Positions 26,297-48,040 of a DNA stretch of 64,000 nt are shown here, piece by piece. Each line of letters begins with the position of its first letter. Position 1 is the stretch's first letter. Below the pieces are notes generated by a model, which was not told where the DNA came from, ran no database searches, and worked only from the letters and a program-made list of their open reading frames with translations. Source of the stretch: Microthyrium microscopicum (Eukaryota); contig MU004238.1 of NCBI GenBank assembly GCA_010405405.1, forward strand, positions 1,437,530 through 1,501,529. The letters are read 5' to 3'. A program made the translations under genes and the position numbers.

Positions 26297-26848
26297 GATG
26301 GAAAGGCTTGGGTAGTAGTTGTGAGAGACTGCAAGAGATGGTGTTATGTAATTGCCGGAGAATAGGTTTGTCGCCTGGTGATGAGCATTCTGCGCGTTGT
26401 GTAAATGTTGAACCAAGTAACACAACCATCTCTTTTTGGGGTGAGGTTGGAAGTGATAGCATAAGCGCCGGTTTAATGGTTACAATTGGTTGCATAGACG
26501 CCGAAGCGTGCCTTAAAAGGCAACTGCGACCCTCTAAGCTCTTTCCTAGTGTGAACGTTCATCTTCACTCCATGCATGCTTTGTCAAAGCGCCTCACTTC
26601 AACCTCCATCAACCACCCATATTCTAGATCTTCAATTGCTCATCTGTCTACTTCTTGCTGTATTCATCTCTGGCCATCGCATATCGAATCAACATCGAAT
26701 TACTTTCCAGGGACCTTGTCTTCATCGCCTCTACATTCGCGCTGCGCGCGGCCAACATCGCGAGCCTCGAGATTTGTAGGATCATCTGCGCCGTTAAGTT
26801 ATGAACAGTTTACGCTAATGACTGATAGCTTGAAAGAGATCTGCAGCC

Positions 26849-29800
26849 ATGTCTAATATCCCAAATGTCCCATCACGGAGTGGTAGTATCGCCAATGGAC
26901 CACCAAGCGCAGGCATGAACTCGCAACAAGCACCGCCTCCTACCCCAGGCGCTGCGCCAACACAGCAAAATCTAAACCAAATAGTAAGTCGATAGAGAAC
27001 CAACTGGAGATGTTTGGATTGAGTTTTTTTTTTATTCTTGCTTGTCTTGCTTGTGTTTTTGAGAAGCGGGATCAGACAATCTCAGCAGATGTCTGGGCGG
27101 TACGCTTGTGGCCTGGCCCTGCACTTGTTTTTCACTTTCTCATTTTCTTTGCTGTCCTTTCCGTTTGGCGTCCTCTTCCTTTGCGAGATCTGGAGCTGGA
27201 GACTATCTGGACTTGACCATGAGCTGCAAAATCGAGGGTCTCAGCAGACTTACCTTTCTTGACAACTCATGACATCCATCACGAGGAGGATCCACCCTGG
27301 AGATGCTTTAACTATGGAATGCCTTCCTATCCAATTTATGGAGGCCTTTGAGACTCACACCACCAGCAGCACCATAATGCCTCACTCCAAGGACTAGGCA
27401 ATGCCCCAAATCGAGGACAAAGCAATTCTCCCAGCCAAAGACCAGGTTTTGCGTCTCCAAATACTGCAAATATGTATCAATTTCATCCTGCTGGCTTCAG
27501 CCAAGGACAGGCTTCTAGGCCGTCACAAGGCTCTAATCAATCGCAAAATGGTGGCCGTTTACCTGCTCATGGCCGCTCATTATCGAATAATGGTGCTCCA
27601 ACCCCATACCAACCATTATCTAATCAGCGGGTTAACACTCAAGATGGTGGACAGCCTCCGGCCAAGAGACAGCAAGTCTCTGGTGGGCTTTTTTACCCTT
27701 CTAATTACCCTGCCTCTCCTCGTCAGGGGACCTCTCAGAATTACGGACAGTCACAATCAAGTCCCCAAACTATGCCTGGTAACAATATGGCGCCATCTAA
27801 CCGTTCTGCCTCAGGCCAGCACTGGAATTCTTCAAATCGAGGTCCTCTGCAGCTACCAGACCAGCATATGTCAACTGAAAATTCAGCACATGCGCAGCAT
27901 GGTGGCTTTTCCGCCTCTCAGCTAAGCTCCCCTAGTCGAGGACCATCGCAGCAACAAATTTCGCAAGCAATGTCTTCATCACAACTGAATTCTCAAGGCC
28001 GGGCTCAGACACAGCGACCAACATCGCAGGGAATATCGCCTAATCCACAAATGAGCCCGCATAATCAGGCTCCAATGCAGCAACTGTCATTTTCAGGGGC
28101 GCCTCCTTCACAGATGAATGCTCAAGGCTGGGAAGCAACACAGCAACAATCATTTCAAGAGCCTCCATCCGGTCCACAATTTAATATTCCGGGTCGGGCA
28201 CCGGCGCAGCAACAGTCGTTACAAGCGGCGTCAGCTTCACAAACAATTGCTCAAAGTTGGGCTCAAATACAAGAGCAACCATATCAAGGACCCCTTCATC
28301 TACCCGCAAACCCCCGCAATCAGGCGCAAGCACAGCAAAACACAGCTCAAGATCCTCCATATAGTCCACAGGCGCAGGTTACTCAGAATTATCAAGCGGC
28401 ACAGCTCCCGACATCTCAAGTCACTTCTTTCAGTCCTCAGTTGCAATCGCCAACTACTCAAAACCAACGACCAGTGCAGCAGTCGTCTCAAGCAAACTTC
28501 TCTAGTCCGCGACCAATCTATCGCAATAATCTGCCAGAGAAGCGGCCGCTGAACCAAGGAGCTCCTTCTCTCCCGAATTTCAAACTTCAGGGTCAGCTAT
28601 CGACACCGTCCCAACACGCTCCATCTCGTTTGAGCGACGAAAGTTCACAAAACCGGGCCTCGCCGTCTCCACAACTTCAAGTACCTTCGCCTACATCGAA
28701 CTTCTTGCAAGAAAATCAGTCGCACCAAAATTCTCCGGGTGGCGTGCCAGGACAGCAGCGGCAATTTCAGGGACCGGCTTCTGGCTCTCAGCACAACGCT
28801 CCCAATCGTAGCCTGGTGACTAGTAATTCTCAAACTCGAGTGTTCGATCATCATTCAGAAACTCAAGGGCCGGCAGTTTCTGGTTTTCAGCCCAATTCTT
28901 CCAATCGCGGCTCTGCACAACAAGCAGCAATTCAAAGTGCTGTCTCTATTTCACTACCGAAGGTCCACAGTCAGGTAACTGAGCAGCTCAAGTCTCAAGG
29001 TAGCGGACCTTCACTGCAAACCCAGGTCCAAGGTTCATCGAGCTCATCTCCAAACTTGTTGCATCGAGCTGCACAATCGTCGCCTTCTCAAAGTCACGCA
29101 ACAACACAACAGCCACCAAATCAAATACTTCCTACCCAGCAGCAACAGTGCCCCAGCCAAGGACAAGCGCAACTACATTCTGCTGATCCTAATCGACCGT
29201 ATCCTCACTCTCAGCATCGTGTACCAGCACAGCAGTTGTCATATCAGGTAACTCCTAGGTCACGGCCACAGTCTCAGAGCCAAGGACAGGCGCATCCAAA
29301 TCCCTCAAACCACGGGCAACAAGCAGCATATGCTAGTAGGCAGTTCAATACCCATCCTGTAATAAACACCCAATCGAAATCTCCGCCGAATCGGCCAGCA
29401 AATCCCGCAATGGCGCCTCCTCTACCCTCTTGGAATGCATCATCCACTTCTCGAACTTATCTCAGCCCAGGTCCTTCCTTTTCGAATCGCCAGCCATACT
29501 ATGGAACCGGAACTCCCGGCATGCGGCAAATTCAACGACCGCTGGCCCCAGTCGTGGAATATCAGCTCAATCCCAATACGGTATAATTTGTGTTTGAAGT
29601 TTTGTCTTTGAGATTCTTATTTTTTTTTGTCAAAGGAGACGCGACGTTCAATATACTCAGTTTGCTAACGTAACTTCAAGGTTCTTGAGTACCTTAATAA
29701 AAAAGGGTATGCAAAAACAGAGGCGACACTTCGTAAAGAATCTGCCAATCTTGAAGCCAATGGTACGCCCTCTGTACGACGAGCTCGAGAAACTGGTGGT

Positions 29801-31807
29801 CCGGCTTATGATAAAGCTTTTTGTAAGTTGCGGATCCATTTCTACCATTGTGATGAGGTCTAACACGTTGATAGCGATTCTTCTAGGATTCATTGAAGAC
29901 AGCTTAGAAGCCTATCGCCCTGAGCTTTATCGACTGTTGTGGCCGATTTTTGTTCATTGCATTCTTGATCTTGCGGCCGATTACTATCCTCGCGAATGCG
30001 AGGCCTTCTATAAGAAGCATCATGAACGATTTGATCGCGAGCATGTCGATGAGCTTCGACAACTCTCTGTTATCACAAGCCCGGAACACTTGGCAAGCAG
30101 CAGCCTTGCTAAACTGTACCGTGAAAACAAATACCGACTCACTCTGACAAAGATGGTCTATGCCATTCTGGTACAATTCCTGGAGAATAGGGAAGAAGAC
30201 GGTGGCGACATTCTTACCAAACTTATCAATAGCCATCTTAAGATCGTTGAAGTAGAGCGTGCCGCAGTAGGAGAGCGAAGTTTAGCTGCTATGCTTGCAC
30301 GCAAAGGTGAAGAATACGACCAGCCTGCCGAAGATGAAGGCATCCCCGGCCATAATCCTGGATCTGCAAACACAGATCCCAACGCTCCTAATGTTCTACC
30401 TCGTCTTGCGCTCGGACCTTTACCTATGGACGTGGACCTTGCAGATGATGTTCGCGCAGAATTAGCTGAGCAAGATGAAAAAGAGCCGCCAGCCCCTGGC
30501 GAGGATTCGCTTGTGGCAGTCTGGGACGAAAAGGTCAAAAAAGAACCAACCGAAGACGCGCCTTCACGCGAAACAATTCCCCTCCCACCTCCTCTAGCTA
30601 GAGATGTCGCAATGGAAGTCCAGAAGGTTCGTGAGCATCGTGATCGATTCAAGATAGATCCTTTCACGGGCGGAACTCCACCAGGCGTTAGTGTTTGTAT
30701 GTACACATTTCACAACACACACGAAAGGTTAGTGGAGATATCATTATTGAAAACATTCGCCTGACATGTTCTAGCTTCAACTGCCTCGATTTCTCTGGAG
30801 ACTTGTTATTGGTAGCTGGAGGCACGGCTTTAAGCTACATTCAAGTTTGGTCACTTGACGGATCGCCCTTGATAGATATGAGTAGACCAGACGAAGAGAA
30901 GCCACCATCTTCGCGCCGCCTAATAGGTCACTCTGGACCTGTATTCGCAGTTTCTTTCCAACCTTCAACAGAAAAGCCGAAAACTGAGACAGATTTCCTG
31001 AAGGACACCCATACAGGCCCCCATCTCCTCCTTTCCGCCTCAGCCGATAAGACTATCCGTCTTTGGAGCTTAGATGCCTGGACATGCCTGACCTATTTCC
31101 GCTCACATCTAGCCCCCGTCTTCGATGTTCAATGGGGTCCTTACGGGCACTACTTCTTGACATGTGGTGCGGACAAGGTGGCCCGTGTATGGTCGCAGGA
31201 ATCTATAGCGCCATTGCGCATGTTCGTCGGCCATGAAAACGATGTCGAATGTGGCGCATGGCATCCCAATGGCGCATACGTCTTCACTGCAGGCGACAAA
31301 ACCATTCGAATGTGGGATATAATGCGTGGCACCTCACTGCGCATGTTTACGGGACATACTGGGAATATTACCGCCCTCGAATGCTCTCGCGATGGCAAGA
31401 CTCTAGCATCTGCGGATGATCAGGGAAGCATCTTTTTGTGGGACCTGGCAACTGGTACACGCATCAAGCGCATGCGTGGGCACGCCAAAGGAGGCATCTG
31501 GTCTCTCTCATGGAGCGTCGAATCGAACCTCGTTGTCTCTGGTGGCGCTGATAACACTGTTCGTGTTTGGGATGTTGCTCCGCGTGCCGAAGGTTCTCGG
31601 GCAGCCGATCTTAATAAGACAGATGGCTCCATGAGTGCTCCTCCGGTTCCGAGCGTGTTACCACCTAAGAAGTCGAAAAAGGATGTTGTGATCACACCTG
31701 ATCAGATCAGCTGTTTCCCGACCAAAAAGAGTCCTGTCAAGAAGGTCATGTTTACTCGGGCAAATCTTTGCATTGCTGGGTCTGTCTTCGAACCTGAGCC
31801 AGCTTGA
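26849..31807 (+). CDS. TAF5: TFIID/SAGA subunit TAF5 (LisH, NTD2, WD40)
   Basis: Exons 26849-26983, 29681-29822, 29875-30727 and 30775-31807. The exon 1/2 join restores LisH (QQNLNQI|VLEYLNKKGMQKTEATLRKES). NTD2 motif YRPELYRLLWPIFVH, then SVCMYTFHNT and WD40 repeats (LIGHSGPV, MFVGH, MFTGH, RMRGH). Confidence 0.93.
27472..29586 (+). CDS. Q/S/P/N-rich low-complexity ORF (704 aa) nested in TAF5 intron 1; either an independent gene or an alternative exon
   Basis: Uninterrupted 2.1 kb ORF whose frame is open from 27352. It has internal ~21-aa repeats and lies wholly between the TAF5 donor (26984) and acceptor (29680). Confidence 0.65.
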   Translation: MYQFHPAGFSQGQASRPSQGSNQSQNGGRLPAHGRSLSNNGAPTPYQPLSNQRVNTQDGGQPPAKRQQVSGGLFYPSNYPASPRQGTSQNYGQSQSSPQTMPGNNMAPSNRSASGQHWNSSNRGPLQLPDQHMSTENSAHAQHGGFSASQLSSPSRGPSQQQISQAMSSSQLNSQGRAQTQRPTSQGISPNPQMSPHNQAPMQQLSFSGAPPSQMNAQGWEATQQQSFQEPPSGPQFNIPGRAPAQQQSLQAASASQTIAQSWAQIQEQPYQGPLHLPANPRNQAQAQQNTAQDPPYSPQAQVTQNYQAAQLPTSQVTSFSPQLQSPTTQNQRPVQQSSQANFSSPRPIYRNNLPEKRPLNQGAPSLPNFKLQGQLSTPSQHAPSRLSDESSQNRASPSPQLQVPSPTSNFLQENQSHQNSPGGVPGQQRQFQGPASGSQHNAPNRSLVTSNSQTRVFDHHSETQGPAVSGFQPNSSNRGSAQQAAIQSAVSISLPKVHSQVTEQLKSQGSGPSLQTQVQGSSSSSPNLLHRAAQSSPSQSHATTQQPPNQILPTQQQQCPSQGQAQLHSADPNRPYPHSQHRVPAQQLSYQVTPRSRPQSQSQGQAHPNPSNHGQQAAYASRQFNTHPVINTQSKSPPNRPANPAMAPPLPSWNASSTSRTYLSPGPSFSNRQPYYGTGTPGMRQIQRPLAPVVEYQLNPNTV

Positions 31808-44345: not shown

Positions 44346-47300
44346 ATGGTCCGTCTCACATCTGCCGCCGGACTCGTCGGCTTCTTGTCCGAGCCTGATC
44401 CAACTCTCCGGAGCTTCGCCCTTCATTCTTTGAACGAACACGTTCAGCTGCTTTGGCCCGAGATATCAAATTCAATAGCTGACATGTAAGTTTTGACTTG
44501 TTTTGTCTCACATTACTCTTTACTTCGCTTTGTTTGCGCAAGAGCTGTCGCGCCAAGCTCCTGAGCTATGTCGTAATCATGACTTGAAGCTAATAATACC
44601 AAATAGTGAGGCGCTTTGCGAAGATGAATCTTTCTCCGAGAGAGAGCTTGCAGCCCTGGTGGCCTCAAAAGTTTATTATCAGCTTGGCGAATACAATGAA
44701 AGCATGACCTTTGCTCTCAGCGCTGGCAAGCTATTTGATCTCGACCATCCCAGCGAGTATGAGGACACTATCATTGGTATATCTGCAATTTCCACTTCAA
44801 ATGAACTGCATGCTAACAACTATGAAAGCTCGCTGCATTGATACATACATTACACTCTCGGCGATGAAGAACCCCAGCACACCCGCCATTGGCTCATTCT
44901 CACCACAACTACCCTCAGCATTCCCTTCTAATTCTAACGGTAGCGCAAACATCGCTGCAGGATTGACTTCTCCGACCACACCATTCTCTCAATCGGCACT
45001 CCCGTCAAAATCGTTACTATCGCGCCAGAATTCTTTGACGTTTGATCCGAATCAACCTGCCGAATTAGCTCCGGGCATGCCATCCACTCTCCCTACTCTC
45101 ACTCCCGTGGTCCAAAAGAACCTCCAGGCGGTTATTCGGAGACTCTTCGAGAGCTGCTATCGCAGTGGCGCCTACCAGCAAGTGGTTGGCATAGCCATCG
45201 AGGCGCGAAATCTCGACGTTCTTCGAGAAGCCATCCTCAAGGCCAGCCAAACTGATAAGAAGCTCGGAAAGAAACCATCAAGCAGTACACCTGGTAAAGG
45301 AGAAGAGTTGATGGAATATGTTTTGGATATCTGCATGAATGTTGTTCAAGAACGAAGCTTCCGGAACGCAATTCTCCGACTGATCCTCGATCTACTCAAC
45401 GACATCCCCAACCCTGACTACTTCTCAATCGCTAAATGTGTCGTCTACCTAGATCAACATTCGATGGCTTCGAGTATGCTCAAGCATCTAGTTGAACGGG
45501 GCGATGGGAAATCCCTCGCCACGGCTTATCAAATATCTTTTGATCTCTATGATAATGGCTCGCAAGAATTTTTGTCCAAAGTCATTGAAGAGCTGCCTGA
45601 GACTGAAGAAACAGATGAGGAGAAGCCAGCCACCAATGGATCGGCAATTCACCCCGACTCAAAACCAGAAGATGCCGAAAAGGAACCTCTCCTTGCCAAC
45701 CAAGACTCTGACACGAACGGAGAAGCGACGACAATGGTTTCTAGATCGAAACCTCGATCCGAGAACGAACAAGAAGTCAAAGCTTATACCTCTATCCGAC
45801 AGATTCTTCGCGGTACCAAGAGCATTGAACTCAATCTTGAATTCTTATATCGCAGCAACCGAACCGACAAGAGTGTTCTCAACAAGCTTCGAGACAGCTT
45901 GGAGGCTCGCAATTCCATATTCCACACTGGTATAACATTTGCCAATGCGTTTATGAATTCCGGTACCACAAATGATTCCTTCTTCAGAGAAAATTTGGAG
46001 TGGCTCAGCAAGGCGGTCAACTGGTCTAAATTCACGGCTACTGCTGCACTCGGTGTCATCCATCGGGGCAACATCACCCAAGGCCAAAAGCTTCTGGAAC
46101 CATATCTGCCCAAGGATAGCTCTCTTAGCAACTCGGTATACTCACAGGGTGGTTCTCTATACGCGCTTGGTCTCATTTACACAAACCATGGTCATCACGT
46201 TTTGGACTATCTTCGGACTCAATTCAACAAAGCAACCGAAGAAGTTGTCCAACATGGTGGTGCTCTTGGTCTTGGTGTTGCTGGTATGGGCACTGGCTCA
46301 GAGGCCATTTATGAGGACTTGAAGCAGGTTCTCTACACCGATTCTGCTATCAACGGTGAAGCAGTTGGTCTTGCAATGGGCCTGGTCATGCTTGGAACCG
46401 GCAACATCAAGGCCCTTGAAGACATGATTTCTTATGCTCACGACACTCAGCATGAAAAGATTGTTCGTGGTCTTGCCTTGGGCATGGCTTTAGTCATGTA
46501 TGCCCGGCAGGAAGCTGCTGACGAGCTAATTTCTGGTCTTTTGGACGACCCAGATCCAACTCTGCGTTACGGTGGTATCATGACAATCGCTCTGGCATAT
46601 TGCGGCACTGGCAGCAACAAAGCTGTGCGTAAATTACTCCACGTTGCTGTCAGCGACGTCAGTGATGATGTTCGACGGGAAGCTGTCATGAGCTTGGGCT
46701 TTGTACTCTTCCGAAAGCCCAGCAGTGTTCCACGTATGGTTGAACTGCTCGCCGAATCATACAATCCTCATGTACGATATGGTGCAACCATGGCTTTGGG
46801 TATTGCCTGCGCAGGTACAGGCCTTGATGAGGCCATTGATCTTCTAGAGCCCATGCTTAAGGACTCGGTCGACTTTGTTCGCCAGGGTGCAAATATTGCC
46901 CTTGCCATGATCTTGGTTCAACAAAATGAGGCAATGAACCCAAAAGTAGCCACCATCCGCAAACAATTCACCAAAACCATAAGTGACCGACACGAGGATG
47001 CCATGGCCAAGTTTGGCTGCGCGCTTGCTCTGGGCATCATTGATGCCGGCGGGCGAAACTGCACCATCGGACTTCAGACTCAAACTGGCAATCTAAACAT
47101 GACTGCAATCGTCGGCATGGCAGTATTCACACAATACTGGTACTGGTTTCCGTTAACACACTTCCTCTCTTTAAGCTTCATGCCTACTGCGGTTATTGGG
47201 GTTGACCAAGATCTCGAAATTCCAACCTTTCAATTCCACAGCAACACACGCCCAAGCATGTTTGATTACCCACCCGAGGCTGAAGCAAAAGCCGAGGAAG

Positions 47301-48040
47301 TCATGGAGAAGATCAAAACCGCTGTCTTATCGACGACTGCCCAGGCCAAGCGGAGAAGACAGGCCAAAGAGGCCAAGCAACGTGGTGAGAGTATGGGTAT
47401 GAGTATGGAACTTGACCCACCCAAGTCCGCTGTAGACCGGGAGACATCCGCACAACCTGAGGAGGCCAAAAGTGGCGAGGACGAAAAGACCCCCGAAAAA
47501 GAAGAGGCTATAACCAAGCGGAAACAAGAAAAGGAGAAGGTTGGCTATGAACTTGACAACATGTCCCGAGTGCTACCAGCTCAACTCAAATATATCAGCT
47601 TCCCTGGCGAGCGGTATGTACCCGTCAAAAAGGTAAAAATCTCCTACAATTTAGAAACTGTCTGATGCTAACAACGTCTCTAGCCAACCGGTGGTGTGAT
47701 ATTACTCAACGACACTACTCCCTCCGAAAAGAAGTCCCTCCTTGAACTAAAAGTTAAGAAGACTGCAGTCAAGGCCGCTCCAGAAATGCCAACCAACCGC
47801 GGCAACGCACTCTCCAACCTGTTTGGTGACCGTGCCGGTCGACGTGACATGCCTCTCTCGGCGTTACTCGGCGTAAACGATGACCCACCAGAGTACTCCT
47901 CAACTGACCGAGCCACTGAACGACCAACCTCCAGCAGTCAGCCCCCGCGAAGCGCGGCGGCAGATGAAGATGGCAGTGGTGAAGCTGATCTTCCAGAGGA
48001 CTTTGAGTACATTAGCGACGATGCCATGGAGGAAGATTAG
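44346..48040 (+). CDS. RPN2: 26S proteasome regulatory subunit Rpn2
   Basis: MVRLTSAAGLVGFL, ALVASKVYY, NWSKFTATAALGVIH, PC repeats, SYNPHVRYG, QYWYWFP, NMSRVLPAQ. Three introns. Confidence 0.97.

Follow-up and report, generated by a model that had tools for sequence, protein, structure and literature searches.

A 744-codon open frame within the long first intron of TAF5 in Microthyrium microscopicum: a possible optional exon

Introduction

TAF5 is an essential transcription-factor gene. Its product is a core scaffold of both TFIID and SAGA and is regarded as structurally invariant; one review calls its domain organisation stable, with "no domain innovations" (PMC6672047). Here we describe the TAF5 locus of the fungus Microthyrium microscopicum, which lies in a window of 64,000 nucleotides (nt), the whole stretch of DNA that was analysed (GenBank assembly GCA_010405405.1, contig MU004238.1, positions 1,437,530 to 1,501,529 of the forward strand; all coordinates below are those of the window). 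In this gene, the two halves of the LisH motif are encoded 2697 nt apart, and an open reading frame (ORF) of 744 codons runs through the intervening DNA on the same strand. The splice that joins the two halves in related fungi appears to be preserved, and the sites that would include the open frame in the TAF5 message are in phase with it; we tentatively read the frame as a giant optional exon of TAF5.

The TAF5 locus

TAF5 is encoded on the + strand of the window, where Pfam recognizes a LisH piece from 29681 (21.8 bits), TFIID_NTD2 from 29886 (5.7e-38) and WD40 repeats from 30878 (4.9e-46); identity to Venturia TAF5 is 66% over NTD2. The LisH match covers profile positions 7-27 only, and the opening positions of the motif are the final residues of exon 1 (26849-26983, +; 45 codons, MSNIPNVPSR...TQQNLNQI). 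This exon runs from the ATG at 26849, ends in phase 0 at CAAATA|GTAAGT, with the donor GTAAGT at 26984, and maps exactly onto residues 1-45 of the deposited protein P0001. The motif resumes in the LisH exon (29681-29822, +), which starts in phase 0 with VLEYLNKKGYAKTEATLRKES: its opening GTTCTTGAGTAC (VLEY) is preceded by TTTGCTAAC-GTAACTTCAAG, and the acceptor at 29680/29681 reads TTTGCTAACGTAACTTCAAG|GTTCTTGAGTAC. The remainder of the gene, NTD2 and the WD40 propeller (29875-31807, +), occupies exons 29875-30727 and 30775-31804, followed by the TGA stop.

The interval between exon 1 and the LisH exon (26984-29680, +; 2697 nt) has the features of the conserved TAF5 intron 1: it is in phase 0, has GT...AG boundaries (a GTAAGT donor and an AAG acceptor), is placed between NLNxI and V[LI]EYL, and carries a CTRAY branch site near the acceptor (GCTAAC, 29664-29669). 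An earlier reading made from the letters of the window (the sequence-only reading) had reported the exon 1 end at QQNLNQI|GTAAGT, the resumption of LisH at 29681 and the length of the interval, all of which we confirm. It had also contrasted this length with introns of 45-70 nt elsewhere in the window; the two downstream TAF5 introns, of 52 nt and 47 nt, and a median of 55 nt among candidate introns across the window (n=37; a heuristic and noisy set) agree with that, but a long intron 1 of TAF5 is not special to this genome. Shortly 3' of the exon 1 donor, at about 27000-27185, lie pyrimidine-rich tracts, which include TCTTGCTTG in 2.1 copies at 27036-27054. Such tracts often precede transcription starts in filamentous fungi and are also found as the polypyrimidine tracts of introns.

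The ancestral exon junction

If 2.7 kb now separate exon 1 from the LisH exon, do the two still belong together? The NTD2 part of the protein was used to search for relatives, and the best 120 of 472 TAF5 relatives were examined. Among these 120 listed proteins, QNLNxI is joined directly to V[LI]EYLxKKGY in 35, another, mostly short N-terminus precedes VLEYL in 44, and the start lies downstream in 36, plus P0003, which was flagged only through a stray pattern match. In the remaining four, the exon 1 motif stands apart from the LisH exon, by 749 residues in Microthyrium, ~330 in Tothia, 69 in Lophiotrema and 51 in Recurvomyces. Because the canonical junction is present in only 35 of the 120, it is probable that many public TAF5 models have lost part of the N-terminus or carry a false extension there, with the intron misleading gene callers.

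The junction itself is strictly conserved where it is contiguous: Q-Q-N-L-N-x-I-V-L-E-Y-L is invariant in 13 of 13 aligned Dothideomycetes, and the window retains QQNLN.I. The contiguous junction of Venturia scores 35.8 bits against the Pfam LisH profile and covers all 27 positions, versus 21.2 bits, below the 21.6 cut-off, and positions 7-27 only for the junction in the deposited Microthyrium protein (...YQLNPNT|VLEYL). Exon 1 therefore supplies the first six LisH positions, which form the first turn of the motif, and the splice 26983->29681 is the ancestral one. Since QQNLN.I is both invariant and retained, and since the LisH score falls when the ORF is included, the canonical junction must still matter; the 26983->29681 splice is probably still used. 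Exon 1 is unchanged and resembles the N-termini of Tothia, Venturia and Verruconis, so TAF5 translation starts at 26849, not near 29600; a TAF5 that begins near 29600 without exon 1, the outcome that the sequence-only reading had named as fatal to its proposal, is not borne out by this conservation.

In the Joint Genome Institute (JGI) model of Tothia fuscella TAF5 (P0004), residues 48-385 place ~330 S/T/A/P-rich residues, unrelated to the window ORF, after NLNQI; the model then joins ...ANQPHS|KKGY, so that VLEYL is lost and the branch-site region is read as protein. The Tothia locus probably also holds a long intron 1 with a sense ORF. A 69-residue N/Q/Y/P-rich insert lies between NLNQI and VLEYL in P0114 (Lophiotrema nucula), and in P0086 (Bogoriella megaspora) VLEYL directly follows an S/P-rich N-terminus of 247 residues; both are possible further cases of coding sequence in intron 1.

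The open frame inside intron 1

From stop to stop, the frame is open over 27352-29586 (+), that is, 744 codons plus the TAA stop. Its first in-frame ATG, at 27472-27474, is followed by 704 codons up to the stop at 29584-29586; this is the 704-codon ORF (27472-29586) of the sequence-only reading, which is correct from the ATG onward but understates the frame. The next longest frames in the interval have 175 codons (+ strand) and 98 codons (- strand), and the two other + frames of the ORF region contain 12 and 27 stops. None of 5000 dinucleotide-preserving shuffles of the 2697-nt interval reached 744 codons (mean 169, maximum 425): the length of the frame is far beyond chance.

The encoded sequence is dominated by a few residues (Q 17%, S 16%, P 13%, A 8%, N 8%, G 7%), as the earlier label of a Q/S/P/N-rich protein had it. 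The accompanying label "prion-like" is not established. Yeast prion domains are recognized by a long Q/N-dominated stretch with few prolines and charged residues, prion or amyloid behaviour needs experimental proof, and a high proline content speaks against prion-like character; here, Q+N amounts to 25% overall and nowhere exceeds 35% over 80 residues, no Q run is longer than 4, charged residues make up 7.9% and proline 13%. AlphaFold2, run without an alignment, assigned a predicted local distance difference test (pLDDT) score <50 to all 738 residues of the part that is exon 3 in the deposited gene model (see below), with no helices or other secondary structure; this agrees with a product predicted to be disordered and is weak evidence on its own.

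Where does such a sequence come from? The ORF protein has no matches at E<=0.001 among 1.84 billion representatives, no Pfam family, no homologue among proteins of 387-1232 residues, no neighbour in the ESM Atlas and no tblastn match in 80 metagenome TAF5 loci; among longer proteins, its sole match is the window's own 1469-residue model. An origin by repeat expansion was rejected: a self-BLAST is empty, and the sole tandem repeat, 9 nt in 2.1 copies (27036-27054), lies outside the ORF. Insertion of a mobile element was rejected as well, given only 14-22-nt flanking direct or inverted repeats at chance level, 0 Pfam families and no internal repeats. A duplicated TAF5 N-terminus was considered on account of two segments, ...TPG...VVEYQLN at the C-terminus of the ORF and the internal ...TTQQPPNQI, which could be decayed versions of the exon 1/LisH junction. 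Smith-Waterman scores did not differ significantly from those of composition-matched shuffles (p = 0.48, 0.31, 0.05), and a comparison with exon 4 gave p = 0.012 on a meaningless alignment. For an intron-hosted small RNA, such as a small nucleolar RNA, 0 Rfam matches were found at E<=1 in 26500-30000. The codon usage of the ORF has a synonymous log-likelihood ratio of 0.004, within the span of the reference set (-0.022 to 0.061), and GC content at third codon positions (GC3) is 0.38, below all 18 reference frames.

Splice sites and the composition boundary

The sole public model of the gene, P0001 (BT63DRAFT_416072, Microthyrium microscopicum, 1469 residues, 100% identical), is named in UniRef as a TAF5 NTD2 protein. 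It maps exactly onto six + strand exons, 26849-26983, 27067-27099, 27367-29580, 29681-29822, 29875-30727 and 30775-31804, separated by introns of 83, 267, 100, 52 and 47 nt, and the ORF is its exon 3. The sole public annotation thus makes the ORF part of TAF5 rather than a gene nested in it. According to the accessible text of the Microthyrium genome paper, the JGI pipeline was used (PMC7082219). Exon 3 (27367-29580, +; 738 codons, 2214 nt) stands after the acceptor GACTCACACCACCAG| and before the donor |GTATAA. The intron that follows it (29581-29680, +; 100 nt) starts in phase 0 at this GTATAA, whose TAA is the stop codon of the ORF, and shares the branch site and acceptor of the ancestral intron. 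The inserted exons, of 2214 nt and 33 nt, are each divisible by 3 in length, and the end of exon 1 and the start of the LisH exon are both in phase 0; inclusion and skipping both preserve the frame.

The 33-nt micro-exon of the model (27067-27099, +; RDQTISADVWA) is doubtful. It may be spurious because exon 1 joined directly to 27367 also stays in frame and because its composition is odd, with a log-likelihood ratio of -0.36 for ORF-like composition.

One feature helps to tell an exon from a nested gene. In the 40 codons between the upstream stop (27349-27351) and ATG 27472, the fraction of S/T/P/Q/N/G is 0.65, equal to that of the ORF, and only 0.1-1% of background 40-residue stretches match this composition. 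The log-likelihood ratio is +0.35 for these 40 codons, a value reached by only 0.12% of 3292 background stretches, +0.33 for the ORF and +0.37 for exon 1, whose composition is the same as that of the ORF; further upstream in frame it drops to -0.29. ORF-type composition begins at 27352, five codons before the CTCAC...CAG acceptor, and the switch coincides with GACTCAC-ACCACCAG|, a branch-like site plus acceptor. Moreover, two out-of-frame ATGs, at 27377 and 27401, lie ahead of ATG 27472, and that at 27401 opens a 174-codon frame. ORF-like composition 40 codons before the ATG and behind a plausible acceptor, together with the out-of-frame ATGs, favours entry into the ORF by splicing from exon 1, not from an own start at 27472.

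Intron 1 in other fungi

A scan of metagenome contigs with a TAF5 alignment returned 80 loci, of which 51 contain the VLEYLxKKGY exon. An upstream exon 1 motif, with a GT...AG intron exactly between I and V, is present in 41 of the 51; nine have no recognisable exon 1 inside the contig, and one (L007) is intron-less, with a contiguous junction. Intron 1 measures 87-1903 nt in the 41 loci, with a median of ~480 nt over 32 non-duplicate introns, and the remaining gene is almost intron-free (matches span about 2.05-2.15 kb per ~685 residues). A long intron 1 is therefore the rule for TAF5 in related fungi, with the Microthyrium interval as the extreme case.

These introns are also enriched in open frames on the sense strand. 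Of 33 non-duplicate introns, 13 have a longest + strand frame that beats 95% of 300 shuffles, whereas only 2 do so on the - strand; some of the 13 introns are relatives of one another. The longest frames are found where the intron is longest: 427 codons in 1900-1903 nt (L060-L064), 402 in 1770 (L056), 448 in 1719 (L037) and 182 in 856 (L040). These S/P/T-rich intron ORFs show no Pfam family, a single match among 10 tested being weak and at chance level. A sense ORF is not universal: in the group of L002, L003 and L005, the frame is lost in L002.

One pair of related species, L056 and L061, allows the evolution of such a frame to be followed. Their exons are 86-90% identical and their introns about 60%, and a sense ORF of 402-427 codons stays in frame between two conserved points, an ATG and a phase-0 GTGGGT. 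The four indels inside the ORF (18, 27, 21 and 75 nt) are all multiples of 3, whereas 11 of 11 in the flanking intron are not, including a 2-nt indel 27 nt after GTGGGT; in neutral simulations at the observed 40% divergence, 0 of 20000 copies stay open, with a mean of 14 stops. The amino-acid sequence, by contrast, is nearly free. The ratio of nonsynonymous to synonymous substitution rates (dN/dS) of the ORF is 0.64 versus 0.62-0.77 in shifted frames, and among five close variants the ORF has the highest density of single-nucleotide polymorphisms, spread evenly over codon positions. The sequence-only reading had proposed orthologous introns as a test, with a long ORF at dN/dS<1 as the expectation; the excess of sense frames is there, but this dN/dS is not clearly separated from that of shifted frames. 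An in-frame stop lies four codons before the ATG in both L056 and L061, and in L056 there is no AG in between.

On this evidence, the L056/L061 segment is read by ribosomes from its own ATG, with a coding part that ends at a possible in-phase donor to the LisH exon. Openness and frame are under selection while the amino-acid sequence is barely constrained, as expected of a spacer or leader that is read through to reach the TAF5 body. By analogy only, the pair lends indirect support to translation of the Microthyrium ORF and to its 3' junction with TAF5.

Interpretation of the open frame

Our preferred, though tentative, reading is that the ORF is a giant optional (cassette) exon of TAF5 and that the long and canonical forms are both made. 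In the long form, exon 1 would join the acceptor at 27366/27367, either directly or by way of the 33-nt micro-exon, and the phase-0 GT at 29581 would be the donor that connects the ORF segment to the old acceptor at 29680. Inclusion, if the message is translated, would yield a long TAF5 in which about 750 disordered residues interrupt the LisH motif; skipping of the segment (26983->29681) would give the canonical TAF5 with LisH intact. Frame compatibility, the place of the ORF as exon 3 in the deposited model and the composition boundary favour a cassette exon over a nested gene. The non-chance length of the frame, the retained QQNLN.I, the L056/L061 parallel and the excess of sense frames in intron 1 of other fungi also count in favour of this reading. 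Alternative 5' ends have been annotated before at a TAF5 locus: two isoforms deposited for Verruconis gallopava differ only upstream of VLEYL. The sequence-only reading had proposed a dual-output locus, in which splicing or intronic polyadenylation chooses between TAF5 and a large disordered protein. The idea of two outputs gains from the ancestral 26983->29681 junction and the non-chance length of the ORF, but a separate nested gene is disfavoured by the exon in the deposited model and by the composition ahead of the ATG. The suggestion that the choice is stage-specific is without support.

Several observations weigh against an optional exon. Exon skipping is rare in fungi. The GTATAA donor of exon 3 is weak, without the usual +5 G, and the 83-nt intron ahead of the micro-exon, the first in the model, has no CTRAY branch motif near its acceptor. 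The Tothia model, with its lost VLEYL, is a likely gene-caller artefact, and the Microthyrium model may be one too. As a test of translation, codon usage is uninformative, the genome showing too little bias. No similarity connects the window ORF with the intron ORFs of other lineages, or these with one another, except within the pairs L056-L061 and L003-L005. Finally, since the L056/L061 ORF starts at an ATG of its own, lineages may differ in mechanism.

The window holds two convincing introns whose donors likewise lack the +5 G, at 44777-44828 (GTATAT) and 47633-47683 (GTAAAA). Both have perfect TGCTAAC branch sites, and the frames that flank them, of 93/944 and 975/118 codons, belong to one large gene. 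On the strength of these two, weak donors seem to be tolerated in this genome. A splice-site weight matrix derived from the window was dropped as the heuristic intron set was too noisy.

Could the ORF instead be a gene of its own? An independent nested gene would be transcribed from a promoter in the intron, run from ATG 27472 to TAA 29584, use its own poly(A) site and yield a free disordered protein of 704 residues; from the TAF5 message, the entire interval would be removed as an intron. The ORF is indeed complete from ATG to stop, with an A at -3, and the pyrimidine-rich tracts lie upstream of it; in L056/L061, where the ATG closely follows an in-frame stop and L056 offers no acceptor between them, the intron ORF does need its own start and hence an internal transcription start. 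Yet in Microthyrium ORF-like composition reaches 40 codons upstream of the ATG, the ATGs at 27377 and 27401 (the latter with its 174-codon frame) would precede the start unless transcription began within about 70 nt of 27472, and the 94 nt from the stop to the TAF5 acceptor leave little room for a 3' untranslated region and a poly(A) site. Nor is the ORF held as a separate protein in the databases searched, either among proteins of 387-1232 residues or among the 1.84 billion representatives. We consider a nested gene unlikely.

Equally unlikely, in our view, is the opposite alternative, that the ORF is untranslated intronic sequence, either a very young insertion or a relic that has not yet gathered stops, and that the public model is an ab initio artefact. 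Such a view would account for a protein with no homologue in any search, including those of the 1.84 billion representatives and the ESM Atlas, and for the lack of genome-typical codon bias with the lowest GC3 of the compared frames; gene callers are known to absorb long ORFs into their models, as the Tothia case suggests. It sits badly, however, with 744 open codons that none of 5000 shuffles matched, with a unique, non-repetitive sequence that is not a microsatellite-like expansion and for which no donor gene was found, and with the recurrence of sense ORFs in intron 1 of several independent lineages, one of them with a conserved frame.

Less probable again is an alternative last exon, in which exon 1 is spliced to the ORF, the donor at 29581 stays unused and the transcript ends early after the stop TAA 29584, giving exon 1 with a disordered tail; this corresponds to the choice of splicing or polyadenylation in the sequence-only reading. 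The evidence at the 5' junction is the same as for an optional exon, the GTATAA donor is weak, and a T-rich stretch past the stop could act as a terminator; in L056/L061, however, conservation of the frame ends at the in-phase GTGGGT donor and not at a stop codon, which points to splicing into TAF5. The least probable alternative is a constitutive exon, with the 1469-residue model as the only TAF5 mRNA and a huge N-terminal disordered insertion in this lineage: it equals the deposited model, and disordered N-terminal tails before LisH are ordinary in TAF5 (human TAF5 is a familiar case), but it splits the LisH motif (21.2 versus 35.8 bits), leaves the LisH half in exon 1 unchanged although that half shows no variation among the 13 aligned relatives that have it directly before VLEYL, and relies on a pipeline whose Tothia model is visibly flawed.

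The optional exon of Microthyrium might be one instance of something broader. In a Pezizomycotina-wide two-output TAF5, the oversized intron 1 would be a platform for alternative 5' coding sequence, ranging from starts of 8-11 codons to disordered exons of 400-740 codons; we regard this as a rather doubtful generalization. If it held, the exons would evolve beyond recognition between lineages yet stay open and in frame, and the Microthyrium ORF would be the largest example. Cells would make two forms of TAF5, one with LisH complete and one with a long tail and LisH truncated, perhaps split between TFIID and SAGA or recruiting activators, a single-gene counterpart of the TAF5/TAF5L split of animals.

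Relation to known systems

Nested genes, alternative exons and disordered insertions confined to one lineage are all familiar. The present case is unusual in that the gene is TAF5, that the segment is so large and that it sits within LisH; it is also unusual for one intron to hold, repeatedly across fungi, ORFs conserved in frame but not in sequence. No description of this TAF5 case was found in the open-access literature. Microthyrium shares with canonical fungal TAF5 exon 1, the LisH exon, NTD2, WD40 and the NLNQI|VLEYL junction; unlike a canonical gene, it has ~2.7 kb with a 744-codon open frame between the LisH halves. A close case is that of Verruconis gallopava PV09_07610, with the same locus and intron position. 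Its isoform P0122 reads ...SQQNLNQI|VLEYL, as the skipped form of Microthyrium would, whereas in the "variant" P0007, known from deposited proteins, a different N-terminus of 47 residues replaces exon 1 and reads through the acceptor into VLEYL, in contrast to an insert of some 740 residues.

We know of no isoform-specific function of TAF5 in fungi. In metazoans, two forms, TAF5 and TAF5L, are split between TFIID and SAGA (PMC6672047), but these arose by gene duplication, not through alternative exons. That two N-terminal isoforms of one fungal TAF5 gene might play a TAF5/TAF5L-like role is speculation by analogy. Long-conserved alternative splicing of one gene into two proteins is described for SKI7/HBS1 in fungi (PMC3597508); in the accessible text of that source, the splicing is experimentally shown and both products are conserved in sequence, whereas the optional part in Microthyrium evolves beyond recognition and its splicing is putative. 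Genes nested in introns of Drosophila and mammals likewise have an ORF wholly inside a host intron (PMC3814207, PMC11694760); compared with these, as the accessible texts present them, the Microthyrium ORF is without the signature of an own start, lies on the same strand as its host and leaves 94 nt from stop to acceptor.

A second TAF5 with hundreds of disordered residues inside LisH would, if real, add a new regulatory layer at the level of basal transcription factors. It would also clearly exemplify selection that keeps a segment open and in frame without acting on the sequence itself.

Other features of intron 1

The 3' end of intron 1 often carries a start codon. Of 38 distinct loci, 25 have an ATG, typically placed 8-11 codons ahead of the acceptor, whose frame continues across the branch site, with GCT AAC read as Ala-Asn, and across the acceptor into VLEYL; the corresponding counts for the other two frames are 2 of 38 and 15 of 38. 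Loci with such a start include L002, L004, L005, L008, L012, L018, L023, L028, L038, L047, L052, L056 and L060, and many database TAF5 models begin at it (MDPNVTAQ|V..., MSRNANAIPQ|V...). The pre-acceptor ATG may be an alternative start for intron-initiated transcripts, or a trap for gene callers. In the window, 29621-29680 has no such read-through start, the TAA of GCTAAC being in frame.

The first 100 nt of intron 1 in L002, L003 and L005 share a conserved block, GCGTCACGTG.A.C.GCAGTGAC, with the palindrome CACGTG. CACGTG is a classic fungal E-box-type promoter motif, and the block hints that intron 1 of these loci holds regulatory or promoter DNA.

Three other related loci have in common a stretch of ~80 codons in intron 1 (approximately L013:760-996, L009:5720-5955 and L077:3340-3573), which ends at the branch-site TAA, reads ...SQIA.DSAI.LF.GLL.NGVYY.PA...LDN.GSVR... 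and has no Pfam match. In L077, a 1-nt frameshift follows the ATG that the three share. The dN/dS of the stretch is 0.28-0.61, not clearly different from one shifted frame, and second codon positions show 5-6 differences versus 11-14 at the others.

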